A DNA stretch of 64,000 bases from Escherichia coli. GTDB lineage: Bacteria; Pseudomonadota; Gammaproteobacteria; Enterobacterales; Enterobacteriaceae. Positions 2,470 to 16,953 of this stretch are shown here, piece after piece. The stretch lies in NCBI RefSeq assembly GCF_022846255.1, contig NZ_AP025682.1, one strand, 5' to 3'. Numbering within the stretch: position 1 is the stretch's first letter; every line of letters starts with the position of its first letter. Below the pieces are notes generated by a model. The model ran no database searches. It was given only the letters and a program-made list of their open reading frames with translations, and was not told where the DNA came from. The translations under genes were made by a program, and so were the position numbers.

Positions 2470-3045
2470 TTAGTAGTAGGAGTGCTCGCCGCGCTGGTGT
2501 TCGGTGAGATCGCGCACACCTTTCAGCTCCGGGAATTCGTTCAGCAGCTGCTTCTCGATCCCTTCTTTCAGCGTCACATCTACCATAGAACAACCGTTAC
2601 AGCCGCCGCCAAATTGCAGAATGGCGTAACCGTCTTCGGTGATTTCCATCAGCGAAACGCGACCACCGTGACCAGCAAGCTGTGGGTTGATCTGCGACTG
2701 CAGCATATACTCCACGCGCTCCATCAGCGGTGCATCGTCTGCGACTTTACGCATTTTGGCGTTAGGCGCTTTCAGCGTTAACTGGGAACCCAACTGGTCT
2801 GTAACAAAGTCGATCTCTGCATCTTCCAGGTAAGGAGCGCTTAACTCATCAACATACGCGGTCAGCAGGTCAAATTTCAGGGCAGTGTCGGTGGCTTCTA
2901 CAGCGTCCGGCGGACAATAAGAAACGCCACATTCAGCGTTAGGCGTGCCAGGGTTAATCACAAATACGCGGATTTGTGTCCCTTCTTCCTGATTTGCCAG
3001 CAGTTTGGCAAAGTGCGCTTGTGCAGCATCGGAAATACGGATCAT
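2470..3045 (-). CDS. nfuA: Fe-S cluster carrier protein NfuA
   Basis: 191-aa ORF with CxxC motifs; recognised NfuA sequence. Confidence 0.93.
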
Positions 3046-3103
3046 AGTAATGGCCTAATAGTTGACTATTTTAGTTGGTTATAATACGCCCATCATCGAG
3101 GCT

Positions 3104-4595
<1,492 letters not shown>

Positions 4596-4623
4596 GTGGC
4601 TTTTGAAATGGCGAGACAGAACT

Positions 4624-5502
4624 TTACTGACTCGCCGCAGCCAACTCTTCTTCTGACACCCCGGTAAAACGCATGATGTCCGCAAGAGGGACTCCGGATT
4701 CAAGCATTATTTTTGCTATATGCAAGGCTTTGGATTGTTCCCCCTCTTGCCGCAATCTTTCCGCAATAGTCATTAAGCTCTCCTTGTGTTTCGGTGAATG
4801 TTCGGCAACGCCGTCGATAAAATCGTTAAAACGTACCGCATCGCCGGTTTGCAAGATGTAATTAAACAGCCCTTTGATTTGTCTGTCATTAGCGTATCCA
4901 CTACTTAATAAGCAGGCCATTTGCTCTACCAGTCCCATCAGATCGCGTTGACGAATATGTTTTTGAATTAACTCCAGCAGCGCCATACGTCGGTGCTGCA
5001 TGATTTCATCATCAGGCATGACGGTGACATCAATCAGCGGAAATGCGGAGGCATAAAGCTGCCTTGCCAGGTTGGGATCGGCGAAACAATCCAGCCAACA
5101 CAGTGAATAGGGATAGGGGCTTTCAATGCCGTGGTAAAACAACAATGGCACCACCATCGGCAATGTTTTGTATCCGGCATCCAGGTGATTTTGCATTGCG
5201 GCAATGGCGTAACGCATCATGCGAAATGCGATCAGTTTGTTTGAGGTGCTTTGATGTTCAATCAGACAATAGATGTATCCTGGCCCTTGTTCCGTTTTCA
5301 CCGACCACAGCACGTCGGAATAGCTTTCACGCAGATCGTCATCAATAAAGCTGCTCGACTCCAGCTTGAGGGTTTTCATATCACAGAGCGCGTGAATAGG
5401 TGCCGGTAAATGAAACGCAAGAAAATCGCGCGCCGTCTCCGGTTGGCGTAAAAAGAGTTTGAACAGCGCATCGTGTGGGGTGGAACTCTGCTTTTTGCTC
5501 AT
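4624..5502 (-). CDS. rpnA: recombination-promoting nuclease RpnA (YhgA, transposase-like)
   Basis: 292-aa ORF recognised as YhgA/RpnA family. Confidence 0.85.
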
Positions 5503-5704
5503 GGCGTTCCTTCACCTGTTGTTTGAATGCCGCGACTCTACGCACCACTCCACACCTGTGCATTAGCGAGTTTTCATCCCTGCGAGACGCTTTCAGAGGA
5601 ATTTACGTCGCGCTGCAAGGGTTGCATTTTTATGGAAAGCCGCACGCAAAAAAGCCCGGATGCAAACGCATACCGGGCTTTTCAAAACAGGTGATGGAGT
5701 ATGG

Positions 5705-5941
5705 TTAACGCAGCGCCCACCACTCGCGCAGGCAGGCTTTGCCTTCCGGGCAGCTTTTACAATTGCCAGAGAGGCAGCCGTCAGGTTCTTCCTGAATCCG
5801 CACGGCTTTGCCCATGCTTTCCAGCTGTTGCAGCATGGCGTTAATCATTGGCTGCGGGGTGTTCAATGTCTGGCTTATCTGGGCCGCTTCCATCCGGCCC
5901 CGTAACGCCAGCAAATCACGCACCTGAATAAGTGAAGCCAT
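5705..5941 (-). CDS. feoC: ferrous iron transport protein FeoC
   Basis: 78-aa product from ATG (MASLIQ) at 5939-5941; ORF-track start at 5950 is a TTG extension; Cys-rich C-terminus; start overlaps feoB stop. Confidence 0.85.
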
Positions 5942-8262
5942 TAATGGCAATCACCGGTGGTGCTGGCTGCGCAGCAACTGCTTACCGACTTGCGCGTTGC
6001 CAGCAGTTCGATATCCACCCGGCTACGCGCGCGACGCAGCAAACCGATAACCACGATGTTAAACAGGATAACCGCCAGAATGCACACCAGGCTGTAAGTT
6101 GGATGCTGGCTGTAGCTGGCGACCTGATAGAACAATGTTGCCAGTGAGTAAGCAATATTCAGCCCCCACAGGATGGAGAAGCCCATCCAGCCACGGCTTG
6201 ATTCACGCGCGATAGCCCCCATCACCGAGATGCACGGTACGTACAGCAGGACGAAAATCAGGTAGCTGTATGCGGCAGCTGCGCTACCGAATTTCTGATC
6301 CATCACGCCCATCGCCCCGGTACCCATTTCGCCGTCGCCTTTGCTGGCTTCAATGGGGTTCATCAGTACGCTAAGGCTGAAGGTGTCTTTCAGGCTCTGC
6401 CAGGTTTCATCTACCGCACTGAACAGCTCTTCACCGAGGTTAAATTCCGCCGGATTGAACTCTTCGTCCTGAATATTTTCTGCGGTGTAGAGGGTGTTGA
6501 GCGTACCCACCACCACTTCTTTCGCCATGGCACCTGTAAACAGGCCAACCGTTGCCTGCCAGTTATCTTCATGTACGCCAATCGGCTTGAAGACCGGGGT
6601 GATCACCCGGCTGACGGAAGCCAGCGCCGAGTCGTTGATGTTATCGACGATTTTTCCGCTCAGCGAGAAGCTGTTGAAGGCGCTCAGGAAAATGCTGACA
6701 ATGATAATCACTTTACCAGCACGCAGAACGAAGCCTTTCAGACGCTGCCAGGTCTGGATAACCAGGCTTTTAACGTGTGGTACATGGTAGACCGGCAGCT
6801 CCATGACAAACGGCGTCGCTTCACCGCGCATGATGGTGTACTTGAGCATCAGGCCCGTCAGCACCGCCATTACGATACCCAGCATATACAGCGAGAAGAC
6901 CGCCAGCGCACCGTTCTGCCCGAAGAAGGCAGCCGCGAATACTGCGAAGATAGCCAGACGCGCGCCGCAGGACATAAACGGTGCCATCATGATGGTCATC
7001 AGACGTTCACGCGGTGCATCAAGCGTACGTGCGCCCATTACCGACGGTACGTTACAACCGAAACCAACGATCAGCGGTACAAAGGATTTCCCCGGCAAGC
7101 CCAGCGCCTGCATCAGGCGGTCCATCACAAACGCCGCACGCGCCATATAGCCGGAGTCCTCAAGGAAGGAGAGGAACAGGTACATCATGCCGATCTGCGG
7201 CACCAGTGGCAGCACGGTGTTAATACCGCCACCCAGGCCCTGGGCGAGGAAGATAGTCAGCCAGTCCGGGAAGTGGAGCGTGTAGCCAATCCACTGAATA
7301 CCATGCACAAACAGCGCCACGGAACCGACATCAAACAGCGGCTGTAACGCCCCGCCGATGTTGATAGCCAGCAGGAACATCAGGTACATCACAAAGAGGA
7401 AAATCGGCAGACCGAGGAAACGGTTGAGCACGATTTTATCTACCGCAGTGGTGAAACGGCTGGGTTCTGCCGTCAGGGTGTTGCTTACCACATCACAGAT
7501 GGCAGCAATGCACTGGTAACGCGCATCGGCAATGTGCAGCGCCGGATCGTCCATCTCATTACGCAGACGGGCGAGGGCGGCATCCAGATGCTGCGACGCT
7601 TCACCGGCGTAGGCGCGGCTGTAGATATCGCCTTCCAGCATTTGCAGGCCCAGCCAGCGACGTTGTTTCAGCGGGATGTCGGAAGGCATCACTTTTGCCA
7701 GTGAATCTGCTTCGTTGAGTAGCGGCTGTGCGTAATGCACCAGTTCCACATTCTCGTTAGCTTTATAGCGATCAATCGCCAGCTTGAGCGCTTCAATACC
7801 GCGACCACGGGTTGAAACCAGCGGGATCACCGGGCAGCCAAGACGCGCCGACAGAGCATCAATTTCAATACGAATATTTTGCTTCTCGGCAATGTCGAGC
7901 ATGTTCAGTGCCACGATGCAGGGAATGCCGAGTTCCAACAGTTGCAGCGTCAGGTACAGGTTACGCTCAAGGTTAGACGCATCCACCACGTTAATCAGCA
8001 GGTCTGCGTCGCCACTCAAAATGTAGTGACAGGCGATTTGCTCATCGAGCGAGGTCTGCGATGAGATGGTGGTCAGAGAATAGGTGCCGGGCAGGTCCAC
8101 CAGCGTGACCTGATGATCGGTGGTGGAGAATTGCCCTTCTTTACGTTCGACGGTAACGCCAGCCCAGTTACCTACACGCTGACGTGAGCCAGTGAGCTGG
8201 TTAAATAACGTTGTCTTGCCAGAATTTGGATTACCAATTAAGCCAATGGTTAATTTTTTCAT
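5941..8262 (-). CDS. feoB: ferrous iron transporter FeoB (GTPase plus permease)
   Basis: 773-aa product from [18 protein letters not shown] (G1 GTPase motif) at 8262; ORF-track start extended by 4 codons. Confidence 0.93.
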
Positions 8263-12065: not shown

Positions 12066-14134
<2,069 letters not shown>

Positions 14135-14136
14135 AT

Positions 14137-14167
14137 AAAACGGGAGGTGAAGGTGCCTCCCGTTTTT
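14137..14167. terminator. bidirectional rho-independent terminator (envZ on +, TA cassette on -)
   Basis: cgggaggtgaaggtgcctcccg hairpin followed by TTTTT on + strand and T-rich run on - strand. Confidence 0.7.
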
Positions 14168-14462
14168 AGATTGTTTTCAATTGATTGATAATGAAAGGAT
14201 TCGCTTGCAAAAGCAGGAGCAATTTTCGGGGTGCTCCGGTAGGCTGACGGCGTTTGGTTTCCCAGCTTTTGACCAGGTCATAACTTACCCCTACGGCGAC
14301 AGCAAAATCTTGCTGACGTAAACCCGTTGCTTCACGGATCGCTTTTACATCGATTTCGCTAAAAGTATGGACGTGCTCTGGTTCAGGCGTTTCTTCACCC
14401 TTTTCGATGCGTACCATTTCTTCTGCGCTGGCAAGAAGATCAGCAAATAATTCATCTTTCAT
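14166..14462 (-). CDS. putative antitoxin, XRE-family helix-turn-helix protein
   Basis: 98-aa ORF, ATG at 14462 with GGAGG upstream; HTH-like segment GLRQQDFAVAVGVSYDLVKSWETKRRQP; lies downstream of a RelE/ParE-like ORF. Confidence 0.7.
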   Translation of the reverse strand: MKDELFADLLASAEEMVRIEKGEETPEPEHVHTFSEIDVKAIREATGLRQQDFAVAVGVSYDLVKSWETKRRQPTGAPRKLLLLLQANPFIINQLKTI

Positions 14463-14520
14463 CTGTTTTCAATGCCTCCGTTGACATTTCGGCCATGGTG
14501 GAATTTGTGGAGCTTCAACA

Positions 14521-14838
14521 TTAAAGCAGCTTCTCGGACAATAGTTTCAATGCCTTTCTTTGTTCTTCTGTTAAATCATCCTGTTCATTTTTAGGATAAA
14601 TCAACGCCAGATAAATTCGGCCATTGCGTGTTACGTTGTAATAAATTATCCGAATGCCACCCCGTTTCCCCATTCCAGAACGGTTCCAGCGAATTTTTCT
14701 AAAACTGCCTGTGCCTGCGATAATGTCACCGGCAGTGGGATCTTGAATGAGTAGTTCCTGAAAAGCCCGGAACTCATCATCAGGTAGCAATAACTGGCGG
14801 CGTTTGCTAAATCCTTGTAGTTCAATAAAGGTGAACAT
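14521..14838 (-). CDS. putative type II toxin, RelE/ParE superfamily (HigB-like, toxin-first arrangement)
   Basis: 105-aa ORF, ATG at 14838 with AGGA 7 nt upstream; motif GKRGGIRIIYY...IYLALIYPKNEQDDLT typical of RelE-like mRNA interferases; paired with the downstream HTH ORF. Confidence 0.65.
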   Translation of the reverse strand: MFTFIELQGFSKRRQLLLPDDEFRAFQELLIQDPTAGDIIAGTGSFRKIRWNRSGMGKRGGIRIIYYNVTRNGRIYLALIYPKNEQDDLTEEQRKALKLLSEKLL

Positions 14839-14902
14839 AATGCATCCTGCGGTCTATTGATAATTATAAGTGTACCGTGTACATATTGGTAGCTAATTAG
14901 AT
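14839..14902 (-). promoter_or_regulatory. putative promoter/operator of the TA cassette
   Basis: Perfect TATAAT on minus strand about 24 nt upstream of toxin ATG; tandem GTACAC-g-GTACAC repeat immediately upstream. Confidence 0.4.
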
Positions 14903-14934
14903 AAAAAAACCCCTTATCCGTTTGGATAAGGGGT
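14903..14934 (-). terminator. rho-independent terminator of pck
   Basis: ccccttatcc / ggataagggg perfect hairpin followed by T7 on minus strand, 19 nt after pck stop. Confidence 0.75.
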
Positions 14935-14952
14935 CAATGAGATATCAGCTGA

Positions 14953-16575
14953 TTACAGCTTAGGACCAGCCGCTACCAGCGCGGCACCCGCTGGGGTGTC
15001 GGTGTATTTATCAAAGTTGTCGATAAACAGTTTCGCCAGGGTTTCGGCTTTTTCCTGCCACTGTTCCGGGGAAGCGTAGGTGTTACGCGGATCGAGGATC
15101 TTCGTGTCTACGCCCGGCAGTTCGGTTGGGATCGCCAGGTTAAACATCGGCAGAGTGAAGGTTTCTGCGTTATCCAGCGAACCGTTGAGGATGGCGTCGA
15201 TAATGGCGCGGGTATCTTTAATCGAGATACGTTTGCCAGTGCCGTTCCAGCCGGTGTTAACCAGATACGCCTGCGCGCCTGCCGCCTGCATACGTTTCAC
15301 CAGCACTTCTGCGTACTGAGTTGGGTGCAGCGACAGGAATGCCGCGCCGAAGCAGGCGGAGAAGGTTGGCGTCGGTTCGGTGATGCCGCGCTCTGTACCA
15401 GCCAGTTTGGCGGTGAAGCCAGAGAGGAAGTGGTACTGGGTTTGATCGGCAGTCAGGCGAGAAACCGGCGGCAACACGCCGAAAGCATCAGCAGTCAGGA
15501 AGATAACCTTAGTCGCGTGGCCCGCTTTGGAAACCGGTTTAACGATGTTATCGATGTGATAGATCGGATAAGAAACGCGGGTGTTCTCGGTTTTTGAACC
15601 ATCATCAAAGTCGATAGTGCCATCTTCACGCACGGTGACGTTTTCCAGCAGCGCATCGCGACGGATAGCGTTGTAGATTTCAGGTTCCGCTTCTTTCGAC
15701 AGCTTGATGGTTTTCGCGTAGCAGCCGCCTTCGAAGTTAAACACGCCGTCGTCATCCCAGCCGTGTTCGTCATCGCCAATCAGGCGGCGTTTCGGGTCGG
15801 TGGAAAGGGTGGTTTTACCGGTGCCGGAAAGGCCGAAGAACACCGCAACATCGCCTTTCTCGCCAACGTTGGCGGAGCAGTGCATAGAAGCGATACCTTT
15901 CAGCGGCAGCAGGTAGTTCATCATTGAGAACATCCCTTTCTTCATTTCGCCGCCGTACCAGGTGCCGCCAATCAGCTGCATGCGCTCGGTCAGGTTAAAC
16001 GCCACGAAGTTTTCGGAGTTCAGACCCTGTTCTTTCCACTGCGGGTTAGTGCACTTCGCGCCGTTCATAACGATAAAGTCTGGTTTGAAACCTGCCAGCT
16101 CTTCATCGCTCGGGCGAATAAACATGTTTTTGACAAAATGCGCCTGCCAGGCCACTTCGGTGATGAAACGGACGGAAAGACGAGTATCCGGGTTCGCACC
16201 ACAGAAGGCGTCGACAACGAACAGACGTTTGCCGGAAAGCTGCCTGGTCACCAGGCCTTTCAGATGCTGCCAGGTTTCCGGAGAGAGAGGTTTGTTGTCG
16301 TTCTTACCTTTGCCTTTGTCTGCCCACCAGAAAGTATCGCGAGTGGTATCGTCACGAACGATATACTTATCTTTCGGTGAACGACCGGTGAAGATCCCGG
16401 TATCGACGGCAACGGCACCCAGATTAGTTAACACCCCGCGCTCATAACCGGTCAGGCTCGGGTCCAGCTCTTCCTGATACAGCAGATCGTAGCTTGGGTT
16501 GTAAACGATATCATGTACGTCACTGATACCATAAGCCTCGAGTTCTTGCGGGGTCAAACCATTGTTAACGCGCAT
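14953..16575 (-). CDS. pck: phosphoenolpyruvate carboxykinase (ATP)
   Basis: 540-aa product from ATG ([16 protein letters not shown]) at 16575; ORF-track start is a 23-codon extension; P-loop GLSGTGKTT present. Confidence 0.95.
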
Positions 16576-16953
16576 TTCACTGCTCCTTAGCCAATATGTA
16601 TTGCCTGAATAGTAAAGTCTTTTTGGGGGTGTTAACCGCGACAAGGCTCATAGATTTACGTATCTGGAGAAATTCATATTTGACAAAAAACTCCGTGATT
16701 CCTGTCACGAAACGGTTGCTATTATCGCAGAAATAGCATTTTAGGTGTGGAAAATGTTCTCAAAAGGTTAAATCTTGGTTTATATGGCGAGAATATTGTG
16801 AGTGGAATCGCATTCATGAATGAAATTGATGCAAATTCAATCGGTAAAGTATCGATTCACCACGCTAACTTTTTTTGATTATTTTCTGAAAAAAGCAAAA
16901 TACTACTGCCCGGATGCGATAATTAACCCACCTTTTGATTCTGGATAAACAAC

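Follow-up and report, generated by a model that had tools for sequence, protein, structure and literature searches.

A probable HigBA2-type toxin-antitoxin operon as a presence/absence polymorphism in the envZ-pckA spacer of Escherichia coli

Inspecting a stretch of 64,000 nucleotides of Escherichia coli DNA (RefSeq assembly GCF_022846255.1, contig NZ_AP025682.1; hereafter the window), we found between envZ and pckA a two-gene cassette that very probably constitutes a chromosomal type II toxin-antitoxin (TA) operon of the Vibrio cholerae HigBA2 type. The toxin gene (higB2-like; 14521-14838, minus strand) codes for a RelE-type protein of 105 amino acids recognized by its Pfam, PDB and PHROG matches, and the antitoxin gene (higA2-like, named nadS by PGAP; 14166-14462, minus strand) codes for a protein of 98 amino acids with NCBIfam, Pfam and PDB matches. 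The 58 bp between them (14463-14520, minus strand) carry, 12 nt ahead of the start codon ATG of the antitoxin gene, a GGAGG ribosome-binding site, and a terminator scan detected no terminator within this spacer. A sequence-only reading made earlier had described two co-directional open reading frames (ORFs) of these lengths on the minus strand, separated by a 58-bp gap; its coordinates and the motifs it quoted were confirmed, and the RefSeq annotation of the near-identical strain SCU-172 (99.7%) lists the same four genes with the same starts.

By the mechanism that we favor, a single promoter with a perfect -10 box, a weak -35 element and an operator between the two would drive transcription of the toxin gene and then the antitoxin gene as one transcript, which would end at the bidirectional terminator of envZ. 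By homology, the toxin would be a ribosome-dependent mRNase of the RelE fold that cuts mRNA in the A site by means of residues R50, R63, Y81 and K83, and the N-terminal segment of the antitoxin would fold onto the toxin and neutralize it. Comparative evidence suggests that a dimer of the C-terminal helix-turn-helix (HTH) domain of the antitoxin would bind the palindrome TGTAC-N3-GTACA and repress the operon; upon loss of the labile antitoxin, the toxin would be freed and translation would stop. Addiction, stress response and phage defence are the candidates for the biological role. The protein features and the gene order by which the HigBA2 branch is defined at the sequence level are all found in this locus; toxicity, rescue and mRNA cleavage are predicted from homology, and binding of the antitoxin to the operator is predicted from comparison of related loci.

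The toxin aligned with V. cholerae HigB-2 (VcHigB2; PDB 5JA9) over its residues 3-100 with an E value of 1.3e-23, 48 of 98 residues (49%) being identical. Mutagenesis by Hadzi et al. (PMC5416850) showed that R51, R64, Y82 and K84 of VcHigB2 are required for ribosome-dependent mRNA cleavage, and the same study described a strand, 65-IIYY-68, that slides upon antitoxin binding. The four residues align with R50, R63, Y81 and K83 of the toxin, which are predicted to be catalytic, and the strand corresponds to 64-IIYY-67. All four residues are invariant in VcHigB2 and in 22 homologues representing more than 20 genera. A Pfam scan returned a single match, PF06296 ("RelE"; E value 1e-5), with neither a ParE_toxin match nor a HigB-type model, and PHROG 5869 was matched with an E value of 1e-33. 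Together, the profile and structure-sequence searches bear out the sequence-only reading, which had placed this ORF in the RelE/ParE superfamily. Between genera, the ratio of nonsynonymous to synonymous substitution (dN/dS) of the toxin gene was 0.04-0.06, indicating strong purifying selection. Five other intact E. coli alleles, fetched from different strains, encode an identical protein, the differences between the genes being synonymous; the protein accession, WP_000493756.1, is common to many strains.

The antitoxin passes the NCBIfam model NadS (NF041265) with 75.1 bits at a cut-off of 60, and the Pfam families HTH_31 and HTH_3 match its residues 39-76, so that the XRE-type HTH noticed earlier in the 98-residue ORF is indeed present. 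V. cholerae HigA-2 in the PDB aligned with it end to end over residues 4-94 (E value 5e-5, ~29% identity), and this alignment takes in the N-terminal neutralizing helix (residues 3-22). In V. cholerae, the N-terminal helix of HigA2 alone suffices for neutralization of the toxin (PMC5416850); by analogy, residues ~1-23 of the antitoxin are predicted to neutralize the toxin. This segment, MKDELFADLLASAEEMVRIEKGE, is almost invariant across Enterobacterales (22 homologues). The antitoxin as a whole is tightly constrained, with a dN/dS of ~0.015 between genera and an amino acid identity within Enterobacterales of 85-95%, compared with 69-83% for the toxin. No HigA model was found among its NCBIfam matches, and the scores of YiaG (PRK10072; 65.5 vs 110 bits) and of the MqsA family (TIGR03830; 31.1 vs 61.8 bits, C-terminal HTH only) fell below their cut-offs. 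The antitoxin contains no cysteine and hence no CxxC zinc domain.

The region upstream of the toxin gene carries a predicted promoter and a predicted operator. A Shine-Dalgarno sequence, AGGA (14845-14848, minus strand), lies 6 nt upstream of the toxin ATG, and the ribosome-binding sequence GCAGGA is kept in the loci that other genera carry at the same site. The TATAAT that the sequence-only reading had pointed out is a perfect -10 box read from the minus strand (reverse complement of 14863-14868), lacking a consensus -35; in Citrobacter and Kluyvera the box reads TATAAT or TATACT. The inverted repeat TGTAC-N3-GTACA (14871-14883) lies between the -35 and -10 positions, abuts the -10 box and is the sole match to this motif in the window against 0.02 expected. 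In 25 of 28 related loci (27 genome loci plus that of Klebsiella aerogenes) the same palindrome precedes the toxin gene, and it occurs nowhere else within these loci of ~6 kb; its arms are conserved, and the central three positions vary. Given this recurrence, the palindrome is likely the operator of the antitoxin, and we infer autorepression by the antitoxin at 14871-14883. The footprinted operator of V. cholerae HigA2, TGTACGC-N5-GCGTACA, likewise extends from just past the -35 over the -10 (PMC11006873). Most of the loci at other chromosomal sites have a better -35 (TTGAnn) and, ~30 bp upstream of the first palindrome, a second one; the pck-envZ lineage has the proximal copy alone, because the pck terminator fills the distal position. 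The 58-bp spacer between toxin and antitoxin is not conserved across genera, with an unlike sequence or no spacer at all in Citrobacter and Kluyvera.

Two intrinsic terminators, both called by the terminator scan, flank the operon. The first, at 14137-14166, folds well on both strands (-19.1 kcal/mol on the plus strand and -17.8 on the minus strand) with a U tract after each, so that it can terminate both the envZ transcript (plus) and the antitoxin transcript (minus); the stop codon of the antitoxin (14166-14168) overlaps the A/T run of this hairpin. The second, at 14908-14935 (minus strand; -20.4 kcal/mol, z -5.8), ends pckA in cassette-bearing genomes and would insulate the cassette promoter from pck read-through. 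An earlier claim that native terminators bracket the cassette holds for one side only: the envZ-side hairpin is conserved in K-12, but alignments show no pck-side hairpin in spacers of the K-12 type or in relatives without the cassette. The pck-side hairpin is kept, with changes in the stem, in the cassette loci of E. albertii, Citrobacter and Kluyvera, and since it is linked to the cassette in each of the five other species with the cassette at this site, we regard it as part of the cassette haplotype and not as the pck terminator of K-12. No Rfam family was matched at gathering score. As for the neighbors, ompR and envZ precede the cassette on the plus strand, envZ ending at 14134, and pckA lies on the minus strand with its stop codon at 14953-14955. 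The start of pckA differs between sources, the mechanical ORF list giving a TTG at 16644 (563 amino acids) and RefSeq an ATG (14953-16575, 540 amino acids).

A number of observations weigh against this explanation or its proposed history. The toxin is dispensable: among the carriers of the cassette, 107 of 1328 (~8%) have the toxin-null allele of strain Nissle 1917 described below, and three quarters of E. coli do without the cassette. The Pfam match of the toxin is weak, and an NCBIfam scan of the toxin matched no model. The promoter has a poor -35 without consensus and was not called by the consensus promoter scan. Of the four residues through which V. cholerae HigA2 contacts bases, three (R68, E71 and N72) are replaced here with D, K and S, as read from the alignment, and the half-sites are spaced by N3 compared with N9 in V. 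cholerae, which would imply a different geometry of the dimer on DNA; because of these differences in residues and spacing, DNA binding is not simply transferable from V. cholerae. Lastly, the spacers of cassette-less relatives in other lineages hold repetitive extragenic palindromic (REP) sequences and no remnant of cassette or hairpin, which fits a gain of the cassette as well as a loss.

With regard to the role of the operon, it is conceivable but unlikely that it serves mainly in abortive infection against phages, in which case shut-off of host transcription by the phage would deplete the antitoxin and free the mRNase. Consistent with such a role, the cassette forms a short accessory islet, rich in AT, within an intergenic region that varies, and homologues of both proteins occur in PHROG families, pointing to relatives in phage genomes. 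Since E. coli RMDEC465 carries a different islet in the same envZ-pck spacer, this spacer appears to be a hot spot for small islets of accessory genes; the RMDEC465 islet measures 2.7 kb (locus 4536-7225), has a pck-side terminator of its own and comprises an SMI1/KNR4-family (immunity-like) gene and two hypothetical genes. Against a main role in defence, PADLOC gave no match for the toxin and only generic HTH matches for the antitoxin, no adjoining defence genes were seen, and the phage collection held no close DNA relative. This explanation concerns the biological role only and is compatible with the proposed molecular mechanism.

Several loci carry a broken toxin and an intact antitoxin. 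In Nissle 1917 the toxin gene carries D21K and E22stop (window 14775-14778), and a 7-bp deletion (14870-14876) takes out one GTGTACC unit and with it half of the putative operator. Nissle 1917 and SCU-172 encode the same, intact antitoxin protein. The count of this allele was made with a 100-nt probe spanning three clustered single-nucleotide differences. The toxin is likewise broken and the antitoxin intact in Kluyvera sichuanensis, Phytobacter, Photorhabdus bodei, Photobacterium and one other enterobacterium. In K. sichuanensis the toxin is cut to ~17 N-terminal codons and a short tail, while promoter, operator and a full-length antitoxin are kept. The reverse, an intact toxin with a broken antitoxin, was found at no locus in a search that was seeded with toxin peptides, for which the asymmetry is only partly informative. 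One explanation is that the toxin is attenuated or silent and that the locus is kept mainly for its antitoxin, NadS either regulating transcription on its own or counteracting addiction to incoming related TA modules. The far better conservation of the antitoxin, the orphan antitoxins that outlast decay of the toxin in the Nissle-type E. coli genomes and in the other genera, and the weak -35 of the promoter agree with this explanation. Nevertheless, the toxin of the window is intact, has all its catalytic residues and is under purifying selection, and it is identical to the protein of the five other intact alleles; moreover, loss of the toxin first is the order of decay expected of any active TA pair and the pattern that an active toxin would produce. 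We therefore consider a silent toxin quite unlikely. A function of its own for the NadS/HigA2-like antitoxin, either in anti-addiction ("immunity") against incoming related toxins or as a regulator of other genes, has a small chance of being real; if true, it would explain both the tighter constraint on the antitoxin than on the toxin and the intact orphan copies in Nissle-type E. coli and several other genera.

Alignments with seven empty alleles placed the segment that varies relative to K-12 at 14167-14950 (~784 bp), its boundaries being accurate to within a few bases. Genomes of the K-12 type have unrelated sequence of ~43 nt in its place. The envZ-pckA spacer measures 75 bp in K-12, in line with the sequence-only reading, which put it below 100 bp there, and 75-76 bp when six other cassette-less E. 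coli are included. All seven empty alleles, including those of K-12, O157:H7 and B1172, share one junction haplotype. The K-12 spacer resembles the 3' end of the antitoxin gene at 9 out of 11 nt; this likeness was considered as a deletion scar and rejected as too weak. Of 5426 complete E. coli genomes searched with the 784-bp segment, 1330 (24.5%), belonging to several lineages, carry it, always on the chromosome and nearly always as a single copy. Among the carriers are O104:H4, Nissle 1917, ATCC 25922 and numerous isolates from animals and the environment, and the cassette alleles diverge by up to ~2%. STEC1587, which has the cassette, and K-12, which lacks it, do not differ in their EnvZ and PckA proteins, and SCU-172 (cassette) and B1172 (empty) share the same EnvZ protein. 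Strain BS-04 was examined as a possible decayed cassette and discarded, its alignment consisting of homopolymer-rich, low-complexity sequence between perfectly conserved ends (locus 2500-3160); the cassette region of this assembly looks like poor long-read consensus, that is, assembly noise. The cassette of HS-02 was seen solely as a 46-nt match and is probably a similar case.

In five species other than E. coli (E. albertii, Citrobacter gillenii, C. portucalensis, Kluyvera ascorbata and K. sichuanensis), the cassette likewise sits between pck and envZ. Synonymous divergence between the cassettes of E. coli and those of Citrobacter and Kluyvera is saturated, the proportion of synonymous differences (pS) being 0.70-0.80, above that of the flanks (0.49-0.57), which excludes a recent transfer between genera. 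Metagenomic pck-envZ loci whose PckA is ~94% identical to that of E. coli include both cassette-bearing and cassette-less forms, indicating that the presence/absence polymorphism crosses genera; these relatives are probably Citrobacter-like. In the interval from pck to the envZ terminator, the cassette-less ones have one to three repeats resembling REP or bacterial interspersed mosaic elements (GCCGGATGGCGG...CTTATCCGGCCTAC). The E. albertii type-strain assembly (NBRC 107761), aligned with window positions 13890-16864, showed mosaic similarity, the cassette and the 3' end of pck being ~99% identical to the window and the interior of pck 5-11% diverged. Such a pattern is that of a recombination tract and points to recombination between species. 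Past envZ residue ~371 the E. albertii contig runs on into unrelated sequence containing short stretches that resemble pck, so that a faulty assembly may also be involved. Based on these comparisons, we propose that the cassette together with its own pck terminator is an old islet whose presence/absence polymorphism would have spread through homologous recombination between the core genes on either side, and not by a mobile element.

A recent, strain-specific insertion by a mobile element is highly improbable; the sequence-only reading had called the cassette strain-specific and likened it to a compact insertion. Its observation that the cassette is more AT-rich than its surroundings was correct (GC content 0.41-0.45 vs 0.54-0.59 in the flanking genes, or 0.42-0.45 in the two genes vs 0.54-0.57 in envZ and pck; GC content at third codon positions 0.39 vs 0.64-0.69), as was its view that the placement varies among strains, and the absence from K-12 and the related cassettes at other sites in other genera would suit an insertion as well. 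However, the spread over nearly a quarter of the complete genomes with alleles diverged by up to ~2%, and the occupation of the same site, with the linked hairpin and saturated synonymous divergence, in Citrobacter and Kluyvera, do not fit a recent event confined to a strain. Furthermore, no integrase, transposase, insertion sequence end, target duplication or flanking direct repeat was seen at the pck-envZ site, nor were an integrase, a transposase or a target duplication found within the 3-kb flanks of the related loci. At the other sites, six cassettes adjoin dusA (Leclercia, Silvania, Enterobacter, one other enterobacterium, Psychromonas and Photorhabdus bodei), that of Pseudescherichia lies in the same zur-qor neighborhood with dusA not adjacent, those of Shimwellia and Budvicia adjoin guaA, and that of K. 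aerogenes lies between murR and yfhL. DNA homology to the K. aerogenes copy (window 14170-14883) ends at the operator, which delimits the portable unit to promoter/operator, toxin and antitoxin. A 401-amino-acid gene beside the dusA-adjacent cassettes was considered as an integrase candidate and turned out to encode a TraF_2-like outer-membrane protein instead. Neither a convincing plasmid copy nor a phage copy was found: the matches filed under plasmids in E. coli and Klebsiella pneumoniae belong to records of several megabases or of ~1 Mb, core genes are present on the K. aerogenes record, and all of these look like chromosomal sequence.

The idea that the toxin is a ParE-like gyrase poison and not an mRNase deserves next to no credence, for it has in its favor the generic RefSeq name and the fold common to both groups, and against it the sole Pfam match to RelE with ParE_toxin unmatched, an mRNase, HigB2, as closest solved relative and the full set of RelE-like catalytic residues.

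Having weighed these alternatives, we retain the reading of the cassette as a HigBA2-type TA operon, which belongs to a known kind: the family has been characterized in V. cholerae, and RefSeq already labels the two proteins "RelE/ParE family toxin" and "NadS family protein", as the sequence-only reading had anticipated in supposing that the family was already described. In our literature search we found no paper on this E. coli locus, on the "NadS family" or on higBA in Nissle, and none that assayed this E. coli pair. The published "relE-1/yiaG-1 (TA27)" pair of the adherent-invasive E. coli strain NRG857c is a different locus, located between yiiD and fdhE. A separate PGAP-annotated "nadS" has been reported as expressed in K-12 BW25113 (PMC12350097); it has no similarity at the DNA level to the antitoxin gene described here. 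Given that the family is structurally and biochemically known in V. cholerae and labelled in more than 1300 E. coli genomes, the operon carries little weight as a discovery. Its modest interest is descriptive. It offers a clean case of a TA islet that has long been present in some genomes and absent from others, across genera, in a spacer between core genes and with no part played by a mobile element. It also provides an operator motif for the enterobacterial branch, defined by comparison, and Nissle 1917 supplies a natural toxin-null allele that could be a ready-made control.

Among characterized systems, E. coli YiaG (PRK10072) and the C-terminal domain of MqsA resemble the antitoxin as small XRE-type HTH proteins of distant similarity; their scores lie under the curated cut-offs, and the antitoxin lacks the CxxC zinc domain. 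The founding HigBA, HigB/HigA of Proteus vulgaris Rts1, shares the toxin-first order and an XRE-type HTH antitoxin, but the toxin here matches no HigB-type Pfam model and the antitoxin no NCBIfam HigA model. Moreover, Rts1 HigB is without helix alpha3, and its antitoxin does not neutralize by means of a disordered N-terminus (PMC5416850). Membership in the Rts1-type HigBA, ParE and MqsA groups was rejected, and the earlier suggestion of a HigBA-type module stands as regards the gene order and the V. cholerae HigBA2 branch and fails as regards the Rts1 type. With E. coli RelE/RelB the operon has in common the RelE fold, a RelE-like active site and, by prediction, ribosome-dependent A-site mRNA cleavage, the mechanism stated for HigB2 (PMC5416850). 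It differs in that the relB antitoxin gene comes first and that RelB is a ribbon-helix-helix protein with a C-terminal neutralizing helix; a PDB search with the toxin gave no significant direct match to RelE.

The likeness to V. cholerae HigB2/HigA2 (PDB 5JA9, 5JAA, 5J9I, 8A0X; PMC5416850, PMC11006873) extends from the toxin-first operon to details of both proteins and of the predicted operator. The toxin shares with HigB2 about half of its residues, the four catalytic positions, the IIYY strand and the Gly/Lys/Arg-rich beta2-beta3 loop, and the antitoxin shares with HigA2 the layout of an N-terminal neutralizing segment (LFAxL...) followed by a C-terminal XRE HTH, at an identity of no more than ~29%. 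In both systems an inverted repeat with TGTAC outer arms lies between the -35 and -10 elements, TGTAC-N9-GTACA in V. cholerae and TGTAC-N3-GTACA here, a difference in spacing of 6 bp. The two systems also differ in placement. Whereas higBA2 of V. cholerae is located in the superintegron, the cassette described here occupies a spacer between core genes.

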